Positions 5,291-37,900 of a stretch of DNA of 39,415 nucleotides are shown here, piece by piece. The translations under genes and the position numbers were made by a program. The notes beneath the pieces are model-generated. The model saw only the letters and a program-made list of their open reading frames with translations, did not search any database and was not told the origin of the DNA. Source of the stretch: a virus (lineage: Duplodnaviria > Heunggongvirae > Uroviricota > Caudoviricetes); the IMG/VR virus record IMGVR_UViG_2778261630_000006, positions 1-39,415 of that record; one strand, written 5' to 3'. Position 1 is the stretch's first letter. The number at the start of each line of letters is the position of its first letter.

Positions 5291-5457
5291 TTATTTTTGA
5301 TAATTTCAAGTATTTCCTCTTGACTTTGATTTACCCAAACGTGATCACACTCATGAAACCAGATTATGCTTCCTGTTTCGCCTTGTGCAATATAGGTGAT
5401 CATGTTTTCATTAACAATTATTACTGAGTTATCATGTGCGCAATTTAGTTTTATCAA
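5248..5457 (-). CDS. Possible small convergent ORF (69 aa)
   Basis: ORF overlaps the 3' end of the 4709-5290 gene by 43 bp. Weak ribosome-binding site. Could be spurious. Confidence 0.2.
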
Positions 5458-5519
5458 TTCGCATATCCTATCGTGACAAAGTAACTAGAAAAACTAAAGA
5501 GGTTGGTGTGTCTGATTCT

Positions 5520-6002
5520 ATGAGTTACGCTGTGCTAGTTGCCGCAACTCTATTTATTGGGATAGGGTTGCAGATTGCGTGGTTCTTTTTCTCTAGTTTT
5601 ATTAAACGCAAAAGAATTGAATCAAGGATATCTGAGATTTCTATTGCTATAGGGAAAAATGCTGAAAATTCAGAGAATGAGGCCTGCGCACTGAATTACC
5701 TTAAAGAAAAGTTTTCCCCTGAAAAATTTGAAAATAGAATTACTGATGCTCTTGGATTGGTAATATCAGTAATTCATATGCCACTAAGTTTGCTGATAAC
5801 AGTGTGGTACTTCGCCATGATCGCCGGAAGAATATTTGGCTTCATGAATATAGAGCCTGTAGTTCTTTGGGTTCCAATGATACTGCAACTGTTGTTAAGC
5901 GTTGCTATCTTTATTTTTTCTGTTTTTATAAAAATTGTCTTTGGAAGATACCCCGGAGAAGCGAAGGGATTTAATAAAGAATTCATAAAAACTATAAAAT
6001 AA
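5520..6002 (+). CDS. Inner-membrane protein at the position of P22 sieA; candidate superinfection exclusion protein
   Basis: About 160 aa with an N-terminal transmembrane segment and a C-terminal hydrophobic cluster. Sits between gp16 and mnt. Start is ATG 5520 or upstream GTG 5508 (AGAGG ribosome-binding site). Confidence 0.55.
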
Positions 6003-14571: not shown

Positions 14572-15482
14572 TATCGAATTCCTTTATTCAGTTGCGCCTT
14601 AAGCTTGCGGTACGTCTCTACATCCCCTTTGTTTGCTGCCGCTTCCATCTGCTTTTCAATCGCAGAGATATTTGCAGCAACAGCGTGTCCCTGAATTGGT
14701 TCATCAGGTAACGGGGCTTCTGAAACAGGCTTGGCTCGAGGCTTGAGAGTTAAACGTTCTGACAGTCGAGTGAGTTCAATCAGCGCGGATTGCCCGTCCA
14801 TCGCCAGCAACTGGCGTGTTTTCTCAGGATTAGCACCAAGGTGATACATGAGAGCGGCGGATTTCTCCGGGAAGAGGCGCATGATGTCGGCACCGACTGC
14901 TGGCGGCACCAGTTGCATGAATGCATCCTCTTTCTCCTGATAGTCAGGGATATTGAGCTTTTCCGCTGCGTCGTAGTGCTTACGGGCTGCCTCGACGTAT
15001 TGCGCTGATTGCTGGGTGAACTCCTGAGTTTTGCGCCCCTGCTCGGCGACAGCCTGGCTTCGTGCGTCCATAGCCTTGATCTGCCATTCACTGTTTGCCT
15101 GCTGGAAGGCAGCCAGTGCGCGGCTCTGGTCATAGTCGTACTTAGCCAGTGCATCTTCGGAAAGATAATCGTTAGGGTCTGGTTGTTTTGGTAACTCAGG
15201 GTTCACCCGCAGGTGTTCCGGCAATTCTCCACGCTTAACCGCTTCCATCTGCTGCTCAAGCTCACGCTGGCGTTTGCGTTCGATGCGGCGACGGGCAAAT
15301 TCAGCATTAGTTGCCGGGTCTTGTTTTGGTTTCTCATCGTCTTTCAGGACAATCTCGAAGCCTTCTTCCTGACCTGCGTTGTCGTTGGCATTATCGACAA
15401 CTAAGCCATCAGCAGATGCCGCTGCATGATTGCCGGGCAGGGTTAATTCTTCAGAAGCCTGAATGTCGGTGGTTTGGTCCAT
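14571..15482 (-). CDS. gp8: Scaffolding protein, P22 gp8-like
   Basis: 303 aa, acidic and helical, between portal and coat. Confidence 0.9.
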
Positions 15483-25113: not shown

Positions 25114-25290
25114 TTATTTCCTCGCACGATGTCTTAGCCACCGGATATCCCACAGGTGAGCCGTGTAGTTGAAGGTTTTTACGTCAGATTCTTTTGGGAT
25201 TGTCTTGCGTTTATTTCTGGAGCGCTTCGTTGGAAGGTATTTGCAGTTTTCGCAGATGATGTCGGTGATACTTCGTCGCTGTCGTCTCAT
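25114..25290 (-). CDS. ninE: NinE
   Basis: [58 protein letters not shown] matches lambda NinE. Confidence 0.85.
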
Positions 25291-25814
25291 GCCGCCCTCC
25301 TGACGCCCTGCCCGATCGCCATCAATGCCGCTTTGGATACGGTAGTAAACATCCGTCGAGGACTGATGAACGGTCGCCAAATCAGCAGCATGGAGCCTTT
25401 GCTGTTTCCCTTCTTCTCCAGCCCTGTCGATGGTTCGATAAAATTAATCCGTCCATCAGTGATGATGCGAACTTCGTCAATACTCTCCAGAGCCTTGCTG
25501 AACCATCCGACAGACATATCCTCTGGCACAAGCATCACTACCGTCTGTCGCTGTTGTATGCACTGCTCAGCGGCTTTTTCCACCCACGGCCTGATATTGC
25601 TGTACGGTGGGTTATTCCAGATTGCACCGTGGCTTATCCACTCAGAATTGAGTGCGTCGTCGGCCTCAGTTAGCCAGTGAGCGCACAGAGCATTTTTGTC
25701 GCTCGCAGCTGAATCCAGCCAGAATCCAAACTCAATATCCAGCGCATCAAAAAGCCAAAGCGGCGTTTGCCAGCAGTCCTTGTCGTGTGCTGGCGTATTT
25801 GATTTGATAGTCAT
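25287..25814 (-). CDS. Phage-type DNA N6-adenine methyltransferase
   Basis: NPPY motif (IWNNPPYSN), about 175 aa, ATGA-coupled to ninB and ninE. Confidence 0.8.
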
Positions 25815-26251
25815 GCAGCCCGATCTCCCCATCGCGCTTTCCACTCCAGAGCCAGTCGCGCTTCGTCTGACCACTTAACGCCACGCTCTGTACCGAATGC
25901 CTGTATAAGCTCTAATAGCTCCGCAAATTCGCTTACACGCATTCTGCTGGTTGACTGGCCTATTACCACAAAGCCATTCCCGGCAAGGTTAGGAACAACG
26001 TCCTGCTGCTTTAATGCTGCTGTAAAAACGCACTTCCAGCTTTCTGCATCCAGCCAGCGACCATGCCATTCAACCTGACGAGAGACGTCACCAAGGCAAG
26101 CCCAAAGCTTTCGATTCTGGTCTAAGCTGCGGTTGCGTTCCTGAATGGTTACTACGATTGGTTTGGTTGGGTCTGGAAGAATTTGCTGTACCGCGTGAAT
26201 AGCGTTTTGCTGATGTGCTGGAGATCGAATTTCAAAGGTTAGTTTTTTCAT
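25811..26251 (-). CDS. ninB: NinB (recombination mediator)
   Basis: MKKLTFEIRSPAHQQNAIHAVQQILPDPTKPIVVTIQERNRSLDQNRKLW matches lambda NinB. Confidence 0.9.
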   Translation of the reverse strand: MKKLTFEIRSPAHQQNAIHAVQQILPDPTKPIVVTIQERNRSLDQNRKLWACLGDVSRQVEWHGRWLDAESWKCVFTAALKQQDVVPNLAGNGFVVIGQSTSRMRVSEFAELLELIQAFGTERGVKWSDEARLALEWKARWGDRAA

Positions 26252-26269
26252 GACTTCCCTCTCCCCCAA

Positions 26270-30827: not shown

Positions 30828-30903
30828 AATACAAAGTGTTATAAAAAACCAATTATATTTAGAACATTTTGTATTGACTCGATAAAGTACAAATCGTACT
30901 ATT
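30828..30903. promoter_or_regulatory. Left operator and pL
   Basis: Plus-strand TTGACT (30874-79), 17-bp spacer, TACTAT (30897-30902). Dyad AGTACAAATCGTACT (30886-30900) overlaps the -10; related site at 30828-30842. Confidence 0.55.
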
Positions 30904-32594: not shown

Positions 32595-32695
32595 TGGCGA
32601 CCGCGAAGGAATGCGGGTATGTCTTAATTTGTCCCGAGTCGAAGTATTAAATCAGCGTTATTTCCTTGGGTCATGTCCATTCTGAGAACAATCAT

Positions 32696-33301
32696 ATGAG
32701 CAAAGAATTTTACGCAAGACTGGCAGCTATTCAGGAGAATCTGAACGCGCCAAAGAATCAGTACAACTCATTCGGTAAATATAAATACAGAAGCTGCGAA
32801 GATATTCTTGAAGGCGTTAAGCCGTTACTGAATGGCCTGTTTTTATCAATCAGCGATGAAGTTGTGTTGATTGGTGATCGGTATTATGTGAAAGCCACGG
32901 CAACTATTACCGATGGCGAAAACAGTCATACGGCAACCGCTCTTGCACGAGAGGAAGAAAGCAAGAAAGGAATGGATTCTGCACAAGTTACGGGAGCTAC
33001 AAGCTCTTATGCACGCAAGTATTGCCTCAATGGTTTGTTCGGCATTGATGATGCGAAAGATGCAGATACCGACGAGCATAAACATCAGCAGAACGCAGCA
33101 GCAAAGCAATCAAAACCATCACCTACACCTGAACAGGTTCTAAAAGCATTCACTGACGCAGCAATGCAGAAAAACACCGTAGAAGAGCTTAAACAGGCGT
33201 TCGCCAAAGCGTGGAAGATGCTCGAAGGTACACCGGAGCAGCACAAAGCGCAGGACGTTTACAACATCAGACGAGACGAATTAGAAGGGGCAACTGCTTA
33301 A
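32696..33301 (+). CDS. erf: Erf single-strand annealing protein
   Basis: MSKEFYARLAAIQENLNAPKNQYNSFGKYKYRSCEDILEGVKPLL... matches P22 Erf. Confidence 0.92.
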   Translation: MSKEFYARLAAIQENLNAPKNQYNSFGKYKYRSCEDILEGVKPLLNGLFLSISDEVVLIGDRYYVKATATITDGENSHTATALAREEESKKGMDSAQVTGATSSYARKYCLNGLFGIDDAKDADTDEHKHQQNAAAKQSKPSPTPEQVLKAFTDAAMQKNTVEELKQAFAKAWKMLEGTPEQHKAQDVYNIRRDELEGATA

Positions 33302-33684
33302 TGGCACACTCGATTACTGTAAGACTAAACAGGCCAGCAAGAGAGTTTCAGGCCGGGGAAAATATCGGATTCAATATCCGTGCTGGCGTTCAGTATTACG
33401 ATCGCCAGACAAAAAAGAAAGAATGGACAAACTACAGCGCCGTTGTATTTGCCAAGCCGGGAGCGCAAGCGGATTACTACCGTAGTATTCTTGTTGAAGG
33501 TGGCATTGTAGAAATTACCGGAGAAAACATCAGGGTTGATGTTTATCAGGGGCAAAATGGTCAATCAATCACTCTTGAATTACTGAATGCAAAGATTGGA
33601 TTTGCAACATCAGGAAACTGCCAACAGCAACAAAGTAGCAATCATCAAAATCATCCTGAATACGATGATTCAATTCCCTTCTAA
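33301..33684 (+). CDS. Phage single-stranded DNA-binding protein
   Basis: About 127 aa; Gln-rich tail ending DDSIPF, a typical SSB acidic tip. TAATG overlap with erf. Confidence 0.7.
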   Translation: MAHSITVRLNRPAREFQAGENIGFNIRAGVQYYDRQTKKKEWTNYSAVVFAKPGAQADYYRSILVEGGIVEITGENIRVDVYQGQNGQSITLELLNAKIGFATSGNCQQQQSSNHQNHPEYDDSIPF

Positions 33685-33707: not shown

Positions 33708-34001
33708 ATGCCAGCGCCTATGTATGGTGCGGATGACCCGCGCCGCTGTTCCGGCAAATCAGTATCGGAGGTGCTGGATAAATTCAGAAAAAACTACGAC
33801 CTGATAATGTCGCTACCGCAGGAAACGAAAGAGGAAAAGGAATTTCGTCATTGTATATGGCTTGCAGAGAAAGAAGAACGCGAGCGAATTTACCAGACAT
33901 CAATCCGACCATTCCGTAAAGCCACATATACCCACTTCCCTGAAATCGACCCGCGCCTGCGTAATTACCGCTCACGCTATGGCGCTATCAGTAATAACTG
34001 A
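33708..34001 (+). CDS. Hypothetical protein (97 aa), Abc2-like by position
   Basis: AAGGA ribosome-binding site. Anti-RecBCD role is suggested only by position next to erf. Confidence 0.35.
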
Positions 34002-34176: not shown

Positions 34177-34607
34177 AACAAATGACACTAATTGAGATGG
34201 ATGGATTTCTGAAAGGTAAATGCATCCCACGAGATTTAAAGGTTAACGAAACAAACGCTGAATATCTGGTGCGTAAATTTGCTGAACTTGAAGCTAAATG
34301 CGCGGCGCTGGCTGCGGAGAATGCAAGGCTGAAGAAGTTCTGCAAAGACGCTGCATTCGATGCCGATTACGAAGCAGAGCTAGGTATGGAGAGAGGTGGA
34401 TTCAGTGATGCACTTAACGAAATCAAAACCCCGGCCACCGACGCATTCCTGGCTGAAGTGCGGGCGCAGGGATTGGAGATGTTTGCACAGAAATGTAACT
34501 CAAAATCCGAACAGTCGCTTGCATCTGATATACGCGATAACTGGAAACTACTCGGTGAGCATGCGACTGACTTTGCCGCAGAGCTTCGCAAAGGAGGCAA
34601 CCAGTGA
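34173..34607 (+). CDS. Hypothetical protein (144 aa), helical
   Basis: ATGA coupling with the upstream ORF; no family recognised. Confidence 0.5.
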
Positions 34608-35089
34608 CTGGACATGCAGCAATCCTCGACATGTACTGTGGCAGTCGCATGTTCTGGTTCGATAAGAATGACGACCGGGCGATATTTAGCGATATCAGAA
34701 AGGAAGAGCACACATTGTGTGATGGACGACGCCTGATTATCAGTCCTGACCTGATAGCTGATTTTCGTGCACTACCATTTGCAGACGCATCCTTTTCGAT
34801 GGTTGTATTCGACCCTCCGCATCTTGAGCGTGTTGGTGATAACGCCTGGATGGGAAAGAAATATGGACGGCTGAATAAAGATACCTGGCGTGATGATTTA
34901 CGGCAGGGATTCAAAGAAGCCTTTCGTGTGTTGTGGCCATACGGCGTTCTGATTTTTAAATGGAATGAAACGCAAATACCTGTTCGCCAGATATTGGCAC
35001 TGACCGACAGAAAGCCTGTTATCGGTCAACGAACAGGAAAGGGTGACAAGACCCACTGGATTATTTTTATGAAGGAGGGCAACCAGTGA
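34604..35089 (+). CDS. Small SAM-dependent methyltransferase-like protein (GTG start)
   Basis: Motif I-like ILDMYCGSR near the N-terminus and motif IV-like VVFDPPH. Only 161 aa, so no obvious target-recognition domain. Confidence 0.5.
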   Translation: MTGHAAILDMYCGSRMFWFDKNDDRAIFSDIRKEEHTLCDGRRLIISPDLIADFRALPFADASFSMVVFDPPHLERVGDNAWMGKKYGRLNKDTWRDDLRQGFKEAFRVLWPYGVLIFKWNETQIPVRQILALTDRKPVIGQRTGKGDKTHWIIFMKEGNQ

Positions 35090-35727
35090 GCGAGATTGAT
35101 TATCAGGCGCTACGGGAACGTTATTCACCTAAGCCAGTACCTGAATGCTCTGTTTGTGGCGAGGAAATGTCAATACAGCGTATATCTGGAGCACATGTCA
35201 CTTATGCCTGCTCCAGTTATGGTGGTGATGGAGATTTCAAAATTGGTCGAACACTTGCCGACGAGCATTATGAAAAATCACGCGTAACAGTAGTTGATGA
35301 CAGTGACCCTGATGTAATTGCACTACTGGACGAACTGGAGGCAGCAAAATCAAAACTCAACGAGCAGCGTGAGTATTACGAAGGTGTTATCTCGGATGGG
35401 AGTAAGCGCATTGCTGAACTGGAGAAAAGCGAAGAGCAACTCATTAATGAGCGTGACCATGCTGAGTCTGCTTTAGCTGTTATGTACTTTGCAGCAACCG
35501 GGGATAGGCCTGAGTGGAGCAACTGGTTCGGCTTTTCTGATGCCGTTGATGCCGTGGTTGACAGAATTGCTGATTTAGAAGCCAAACAGCCATCGCCAGT
35601 AGTACCGGAAGAAAAACCAATGCCTAACCCTCTTAGCATGTACGCGGTTGATGCTGTTGCCGCTATTGCAGAGGTGAGAGGCTGGAACGCCTGCCGTGCC
35701 GCTATGCTTCAGGGGAAAGGAGAGTGA
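35086..35727 (+). CDS. Ead/Ea22-like early protein
   Basis: Acidic coiled-coil middle and C-terminal AAMLQGKGE tail shared with the 35937-36386 gene. Confidence 0.5.
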   Translation: MSEIDYQALRERYSPKPVPECSVCGEEMSIQRISGAHVTYACSSYGGDGDFKIGRTLADEHYEKSRVTVVDDSDPDVIALLDELEAAKSKLNEQREYYEGVISDGSKRIAELEKSEEQLINERDHAESALAVMYFAATGDRPEWSNWFGFSDAVDAVVDRIADLEAKQPSPVVPEEKPMPNPLSMYAVDAVAAIAEVRGWNACRAAMLQGKGE

Positions 35728-37820: not shown

Positions 37821-37873
37821 GCCGATAAAGGTGTTTGAGATAAAGATGAATATCGGCAATGAATAACAATCCT

Positions 37874-37900
37874 CGCACTCGCGGGGATTTTTTTTATCTG
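37874..37900 (+). terminator. Rho-independent terminator
   Basis: CCTCGC-ACTC-GCGGGG hairpin (one G-U pair) followed by eight T. Confidence 0.65.

Follow-up and report, generated by a model that had tools for sequence, protein, structure and literature searches.

The locus analysed here raises the question of whether an open reading frame of 161 codons, described in an original prediction as a minimal methyltransferase-like gene, encodes a methyltransferase, and on which substrate such an enzyme would act. The window, i.e. the whole stretch of 39,415 nucleotides that was analysed, is, as read from its sequence, a P22-like prophage, and the gene is located in its plus-strand early-left (PL) operon, which is marked as such by a full-length gene for the P22-type anti-RecBCD protein Abc2. 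The predicted ORF and its GTG start were confirmed by reading of the ORF and by the identity of its product (18.8 kDa, pI 8.9) to RefSeq WP_089638086.1, annotated as 'class I SAM-dependent methyltransferase'; in close relatives, RefSeq annotates the same CDS of 486 nt. The coordinates of the features are collected in Table 1.

Table 1. Features of the methyltransferase locus and of related elements in the window (positions are those of the window).
Feature	Position	Strand	Remarks
nin-region Dam, NPPY motif	25287..25874	-	PF05869, E=2.7e-64
PL-like sigma-70 promoter candidate, TTGACT-17-TACTAT	30874..30902	+	consensus scan only
ERF-like ORF	32666-33301		relatives' annotations list 'ERF family protein'
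P22-type Abc2 anti-RecBCD gene, full-length	33708..34001	+	PF11043, E=3e-64; ~600 nt upstream of the methyltransferase gene
Upstream accessory ORF, 150 aa	34155..34607	+	no Pfam match; translationally coupled
Shine-Dalgarno sequence AAGGAGG	34591..34597	+	6 nt 5' of the GTG; read from the sequence
Upstream junction GGAGGCAACCAGTGA	34593..34607	+	Shine-Dalgarno sequence, then stop and start; encodes ...GGNQ*
CDS of the 161-aa stand-alone class I SAM-dependent methyltransferase	34604..35089	+	PHROG 954; identical to WP_089638086.1
Motif I (SAM-binding loop) ILDMYCGSR, residues 7-15	34622..34648	+	family consensus LDxCCGSR
Codon 11, TAC (Tyr)	34634..34636	+	TGC (Cys) in the nearest relative
Motif II, D30-I-R32	34691..34699	+	D30 and R32 invariant
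Motif IV, catalytic tetrapeptide DPPH, residues 70-73	34811..34822	+	invariant in 33/33 aligned sequences and in 84/85 loci
Downstream junction GAGGGCAACCAGTGA	35075..35089	+	encodes ...EGNQ*; supplies Shine-Dalgarno sequence and GTG of the next gene
Downstream Ead/Ea22-like gene	35086..35727	+	PF13935
Strong terminator-like hairpin 3' of the accessory block	37868..37889	+	consensus scan only

The GTG start codon (34604-34606) shares bases with the TGA stop codon (34605-34607) of the preceding ORF in the sequence GTGA (34604-34607), and this overlap suggests that translation of the methyltransferase gene is coupled to that of the upstream ORF; coupling to the downstream neighbour is likewise assumed. 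The sole alternative in-frame start, M10, would delete the first strand of the predicted fold. The protein matched PHROG 954 ('DNA methyltransferase') with E=3.1e-86, residues 3-160 aligning with profile positions 50-204 of 229, and searches detected 5464 homologues at E<=1e-5 in a collection of 5.8 billion proteins and 1921 matches at E<=1e-3 among 1.84 billion representatives of 50%-identity clusters. Comparison with close relatives (n=8 pairs, dS unsaturated) gave a dN/dS of ~0.1, which indicates strongly purifying selection; for the more distant pairs sampled, dN was at most ~0.27 and dS was saturated. Because of the profile match, the numbers of homologues and clusters, and the low dN/dS ratio, the ORF is concluded to be a real and intact gene rather than a chance reading frame. 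As annotation the gene is ordinary, both it and its family being already catalogued in RefSeq and PHROGs. The label of PHROG 954 is a name derived from homology, and full-text literature searches found no experiments on any member of this family; Silas et al. 2023 proved to have no bearing on it, and Cooper et al. 2014 provided nothing at the level of individual genes.

Consensus scans, from which the promoter candidate and the hairpin in Table 1 were taken, found no further plus-strand promoter-like site between 32469 and the methyltransferase gene, and strong terminator-like hairpins were found only at ~37.87-37.92 kb. The methyltransferase gene is located among accessory genes of the Ead/Ea22 type, upstream of the DUF551 and integrase genes. 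A putative SSB-like ORF is present at 33211-33684.

Two nearly identical 15-nt junctions, each consisting of a Shine-Dalgarno sequence and an overlapping stop codon and GTG start codon, bracket the methyltransferase gene. The junction pattern, with up to 2 mismatches allowed, was matched 3 times in the window as opposed to 0.18 matches expected, and the third match (15088-15102, minus strand) is unrelated. The junctions look like recombination joints at which accessory cassettes could be swapped. Such cassette-like shuffling fits the pairing of the junctions, and the highly variable neighbours of the gene are consistent with it: the upstream and downstream ORFs of 79 loci fell into 93 clusters, the largest of which, Ead/Ea22, had 12 members. 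In eight annotated phages of diverse phyla, the gene was always found in an early, replication, recombination or accessory region with no common partner. A conserved partner gene was therefore rejected on the basis of both the neighbour clustering and these eight phage contexts. In a Porphyromonas phage the family gene is adjoined by an 'acr candidate'.

A larger bona fide DNA methyltransferase gene is adjacent to or near the small gene in Akkermansia phage Chantilly, Gordonia phage Pickett and Streptococcus phage Javan400, and a larger DNA methyltransferase gene is also located beside the small one on the metagenomic contig L090 (PF00145) and in L027. The loci concerned, in which the large genes encode C5-cytosine or other DNA methyltransferases, are L004 (1509-3465), L085 (930-2980), L090 (966-2953) and L027 (downstream ORF). 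In distant phages the small gene often lies directly downstream of the large methyltransferase gene, and sometimes overlaps it. This arrangement suggests that the small and large genes may form methylation gene clusters in such phages.

The prophage had also been predicted to carry, at 25287-25814, a second methyltransferase with an NPPY motif, so that two methyltransferases would be encoded in two transcription units. This held in its main point, since the two are unrelated enzymes in opposite operons. The second gene, a Dam gene of the nin region, is real and lies on the minus strand; as to its extent, the longest ORF reaches 25874 and position 25814 corresponds to an internal ATG of that strand. 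This longest ORF has 195 aa but its Pfam domain begins at residue 24, and translation probably begins at the ATG at 25814 or else at that at 25832. The ORF overlaps an upstream 152-aa ORF (25811-26269). Kinship of the 161-aa methyltransferase with the nin-region Dam was rejected by a profile comparison (hhalign probability 0.2%).

The family of the 161-aa protein is widely distributed. At nucleotide identities of >=80%, the gene is carried by 945 of 5426 complete E. coli genomes, i.e. by about one in six, with up to 5 copies per genome. By tBLASTn it was detected in 255 of 50,697 phage records, mostly at 45-66% identity, and the hosts of these phages include Streptococcus, Vibrio, Acinetobacter, Porphyromonas, Listeria, Gordonia, Corynebacterium, Lactobacillus, Enterococcus, Staphylococcus and Akkermansia. 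Hosts from at least 5 bacterial phyla are represented among the tailed phages that carry PHROG 954. Relatives at 38-66% identity were found in phages infecting Firmicutes, Actinobacteria, Bacteroidota and Verrucomicrobia, as well as in a tailed virus of archaea (Halorubrum virus HRTV-28, 38% identity) and on a microvirus-like contig. The last is a metagenomic contig of 5949 nt (L089), which carries, besides a 43%-identical member (5326-5781), genes for a Microviridae-type major capsid protein (Phage_F, phrog_514), for head morphogenesis (phrog_1386) and for replication initiation (phrog_713). From its gene content, this contig looks like a single-stranded DNA microvirus with a methyltransferase; no terminal overlap of the contig was found, and its circularity and completeness are thus unproven. 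The isoelectric points of family members range from 5.7 to 9.7 and are uninformative.

The PHROG profile begins about 50 positions before the window protein, and many enterobacterial homologues (such as P0002, P0011, P0046 and P0103) are 248-279 aa long. The possibility that an N-terminal domain is missing from the window protein was rejected, as the extensions in longer homologues are mutually unrelated; they look like over-extended gene calls or fusions. An additional C-terminal domain was likewise rejected, as the 248-279-aa forms are read-through fusions in which the ORF extends through the Ead/Ea22-like coiled-coil gene that follows it. Natural fusion, frameshifts, or artefacts of sequencing or annotation may account for such forms.

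The two motifs that had led to the original prediction, ILDMYCGSR and DPPH, are present as described, and DPPH is invariant in the family. In a cross-phylum alignment of 33 sequences, the invariant residues were C12, D30, R32, P48, D70-P71-P72-H73, L90, W95, F103, E105, R108, V109, K119, W120 and P138, and the consensus was LDxCCGSRMFWFDK ... F.DIR ... PD..ADF..LPF.D.SF.LVVFDPPH ... KYG.L...W..DL..GF.ECFRVL.P.G.LIFKW. The motif I consensus LDxCCGS aligns with LDLACGVG of PH0226, the window allele having a Tyr at the first position of the loop. By analogy with the general architecture of class I methyltransferases, the invariant acidic residue at the end of strand 2 (D30) is expected to bind the ribose of SAM. 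Enzymes with a (D/N/S)PP(Y/F/W/H) tetrapeptide transfer the methyl group of SAM to a nitrogen, typically that of the exocyclic amine of a base, and such a tetrapeptide, DPPH, follows strand 4 in the window protein, as is characteristic of amino methyltransferases.

Structure prediction had been proposed as a test of whether the protein has a methyltransferase fold. The AlphaFold2 model, which was computed with the 33-sequence alignment, was confident (pLDDT 91.9, pTM 0.87) and gave a strand order of the class I methyltransferase type. It comprises strand 1 (residues 7-11) and, after it, the SAM loop; strand 2 (26-30), which ends at D30; a small hairpin (34-46); the PD..ADF segment; strand 4 (64-70), which ends in DPPH; helices at 82-87 and 95-109; strand 5 (110-121); a short helix (127-131); and two further strands (140-144 and 150-156). 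The modelled order fits the seven-stranded beta-sheet fold of class I methyltransferases, and the protein is assigned to the class I superfamily. The predicted fold is unusually stripped down, as helices A-C of the canonical fold, which would follow strands 1, 2 and 3, are absent from the model. In their place the model has a 14-residue loop (CGSRMFWFDKNDDR) and the beta-hairpin 34-46, the length of which varies among members. This hairpin could be a miniature substrate-recognition element. At 161 aa there is indeed no space for a separate target-recognition domain (TRD), as had been pointed out in the original prediction.

Profile searches placed the protein in no specific family of known function. 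Neither of the two profiles suggested for this purpose was matched by the window protein at E<=10: for N6_N4_Mtase (PF01555) its relatives reached at most 18.2 bits as compared with a cut-off of 26.7, and for MethyltransfD12 none of 33 relatives matched. The sub-threshold N6_N4_Mtase matches, which occurred in 12 of 33 relatives, were confined to the segment from DPPH to strand 5 and to profile positions 2-64. With Methyltransf_11 (PF08241) the window protein scored 18.3 bits, below the cut-off of 21.2, whereas 32 of 33 relatives matched at E<=1 and some exceeded the cut-off (e.g. P0164, 40.8 bits). The window protein thus stayed under the Pfam cut-off for every family, and its own family has no specific Pfam model. 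Other Pfam matches in the family were Cons_hypoth95 in 1 of 33 members and, weakly, PF10237 (N6-adenineMlase) in 2 of 33; no member matched UPF0020 or MTS. An NCBIfam search gave nothing meaningful (16 bits against a cut-off of 242 bits), and a single-sequence search of the PDB gave noise only. The family profile had weak generic matches in the PDB (PH0226, E=2e-4) and marginal ones to Trm-G10 and the RsmD-like HI0767. The best Foldseek matches in the PDB were Trm11 m2G10 tRNA methyltransferases (E=5.5e-6), and Trm112-dependent enzymes were among the top matches. A structure search of BFVD recovered a single member of the family, the other matches being generic methyltransferases.

The window copy differs from its PHROG 954 and RefSeq relatives in lambdoid and other temperate phages, of which it is a full-length member with the same length, motifs and early or accessory location, in a single private substitution, C11Y. 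In the alignment, residue 11 takes the place of the first Gly in the SAM loop GxGxG, and the motif I string on which the original prediction was based includes this atypical Tyr. The motif could be located in 224 of 268 database homologues, and in these residue 11 was C in 207, T in 10, A in 4 and S in 3; of the 84 other loci, 83 have C, A, S or T at this position and 1 could not be read. Among about 300 homologues checked, the window sequence alone has a large residue at this position. One G-to-A substitution accounts for Y11 when the codon is compared with that of the nearest relative, from E. coli (99.6% nucleotide identity), and the exact window protein was found on one contig only. Because position 11 in motif I otherwise takes only small residues, the C11Y allele may be impaired: it may bind SAM poorly and be a weakened or dead, loss-of-function form.

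The explanation that we favour, at somewhat better than even confidence for the whole, is that the protein is a stand-alone minimal class I SAM-dependent N-methyltransferase of PHROG 954 that is directed at DNA and serves in anti-restriction during the lytic phase. SAM would be bound via motif I (LDxCCGS), D30 and R32, and D53-F54, and the invariant DPPH would direct methylation to an exocyclic amino group. The operon position, together with published precedent, suggests that the gene would be silent in the lysogen and its product made only after infection or induction, in line with the report that orphan methyltransferases of prophages are usually silent in lysogens (PMC8597746). Replicating phage DNA would be methylated before exit and so be protected from restriction in the next host. 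The methyltransferase would act alone, neither as a subunit nor as a decoy. Because conservation extends over the entire protein and no variable module for recognition is present, its specificity would be either low or directed at one fixed short motif. The putative role as an anti-restriction methylase, one of three that had been suggested for the protein, is plausible.

That the substrate is DNA, with m6A or m4C as the product, is likewise considered slightly more probable than not, and the indications for it are circumstantial. These are the weak matches of 12 of 33 members to the DNA methylase profile N6_N4_Mtase; the frequent immediate adjacency to larger DNA methyltransferase genes; the microvirus-like contig of 5.9 kb, on which only a function directly useful to the virus would plausibly be retained; and the precedent of tiny or TRD-poor phage DNA methyltransferases such as PamA and M.EcoGII. 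Against this reading, a universal target of RNA or protein would account just as well for the very high conservation across phyla.

A methyltransferase acting on the amino group of a universal host RNA during infection (e.g. forming m2G or m6A in tRNA or rRNA), by which anticodon nucleases might be blunted or translation tuned, is regarded as unlikely. The Trm11 tRNA methyltransferases at the top of the Foldseek results, the marginal profile matches to Trm-G10 and HI0767, and conservation at 38-66% identity from phages of Actinobacteria to an archaeal virus all agree with such a target. However, the family lacks the THUMP or other N-terminal RNA-binding domains of these enzymes, it has no UPF0020 or MTS match and Cons_hypoth95 in just one member, and both the recurrent adjacency to DNA methyltransferases and the microvirus-like contig fit DNA better. 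Sequence identity to the Trm11/TrmN/RsmC RNA m2G methyltransferases is 13-18%, the protein does not belong to these families, and the helices after strands 1-3 are missing from its model. N-methylation of a protein (at Gln or Lys) or of a small molecule, for example a nucleotide-derived defence signal, is judged to be quite unlikely. Enzymes of the (D/N)PPx type do include protein glutamine and lysine methyltransferases (NPPY/DPPF: PrmC, EEF1AKMT1), two members weakly match PF10237, no nucleic-acid-binding domain is present, and neighbours of the counter-defence type occur (Abc2 here and the 'acr candidate' of the Porphyromonas phage); yet all matches are to the generic fold, with no specific similarity to such methyltransferase families, and the neighbourhoods indicate no particular pathway.

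Catalytic inactivity, either of the window copy or of the whole family, with the protein serving to soak up SAM, to act as a decoy or to regulate another enzyme as its subunit, is the least probable of these alternatives and is thought improbable. It would accommodate the C11Y substitution at a position that elsewhere has C, T, A or S, the predicted absence of helices A-C, which would leave one sheet face covered by loops only as a possible partner interface, and the Trm112-dependent enzymes among the top Foldseek matches. For the family, the invariance of DPPH and of the SAM-binding residues across phyla and the strongly purifying selection (dN/dS ~0.1) argue against the inactive decoy that had been suggested. 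The regulatory subunit, the remaining suggestion, is disfavoured because the neighbouring genes vary freely (93 neighbour clusters in 79 loci), so that no partner gene is conserved. For the window allele, inactivity is a prediction from conservation.

Comparison of the favoured DNA-directed enzyme with known DNA methyltransferases showed likeness in lifestyle and not in sequence to small phage Dams and M.EcoGII. The small phage Dams of PF05869 (T1/HP1 Dam; PamA) are also very small orphan enzymes with a (D/N)PPx motif near residue 65-70 and no separate TRD, but the window protein has no Pfam match and no detectable homology to them, has DPPH where they have NPPY, and differs in the sequence of the SAM loop. 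PamA of a S. aureus prophage has 141 aa and methylates GATC (PMC12435837), and therefore shortness is no obstacle to specific DNA methylation. The beta-class N6A/N4C DNA methyltransferases (PF01555; TTHA0409, M.EcoGII) resemble the family locally, over DPPx, the helix after it and strand 5 (FDPPH...W..d...gF.E.fRVL.p.G.lifKW). In contrast to them, the window family, for which all such matches are sub-threshold, has the motif order I to IV (gamma-like) instead of IV to I, lacks a TRD, ParB or other accessory domain, and is under half the size. M.EcoGII, which is reported to be a non-specific DNA methyltransferase that is silent in its prophage (PMC5778455), is similar in being prophage-borne, in having no variable TRD and in a probable silence in lysogens; by sequence, the window protein does not belong to the beta class of the non-specific adenine methyltransferases of the M.EcoGII and Hia5 type.

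A more specific form of the DNA reading, in which the family would comprise the smallest self-sufficient DNA amino-methyltransferases known (~150 aa, with no TRD and without helices A-C), methylating adenine or cytosine with little or no specificity and possibly acting on single-stranded or replicating DNA, is put forward tentatively and is judged rather unlikely. The near-unchanged presence of the family in tailed phages of at least 5 bacterial phyla, in one archaeal virus with a tail and, apparently, in a microvirus would fit a universal anti-restriction device of this kind, used by viruses across domains. Alternatively, recognition of the substrate would be contributed by a conserved host factor docked to the bare face of the sheet.

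In conclusion, the locus matters because it represents an apparently uncharacterised family of very wide distribution and strong conservation. The C11Y allele of the window copy provides a natural test of what is required of the SAM loop. If the family does consist of minimal low-specificity DNA methyltransferases, it would be a common determinant of the escape of phages from restriction and could provide a compact enzyme for methylation-footprinting methods; if the target is instead RNA or protein, the family would represent a new kind of phage takeover function.
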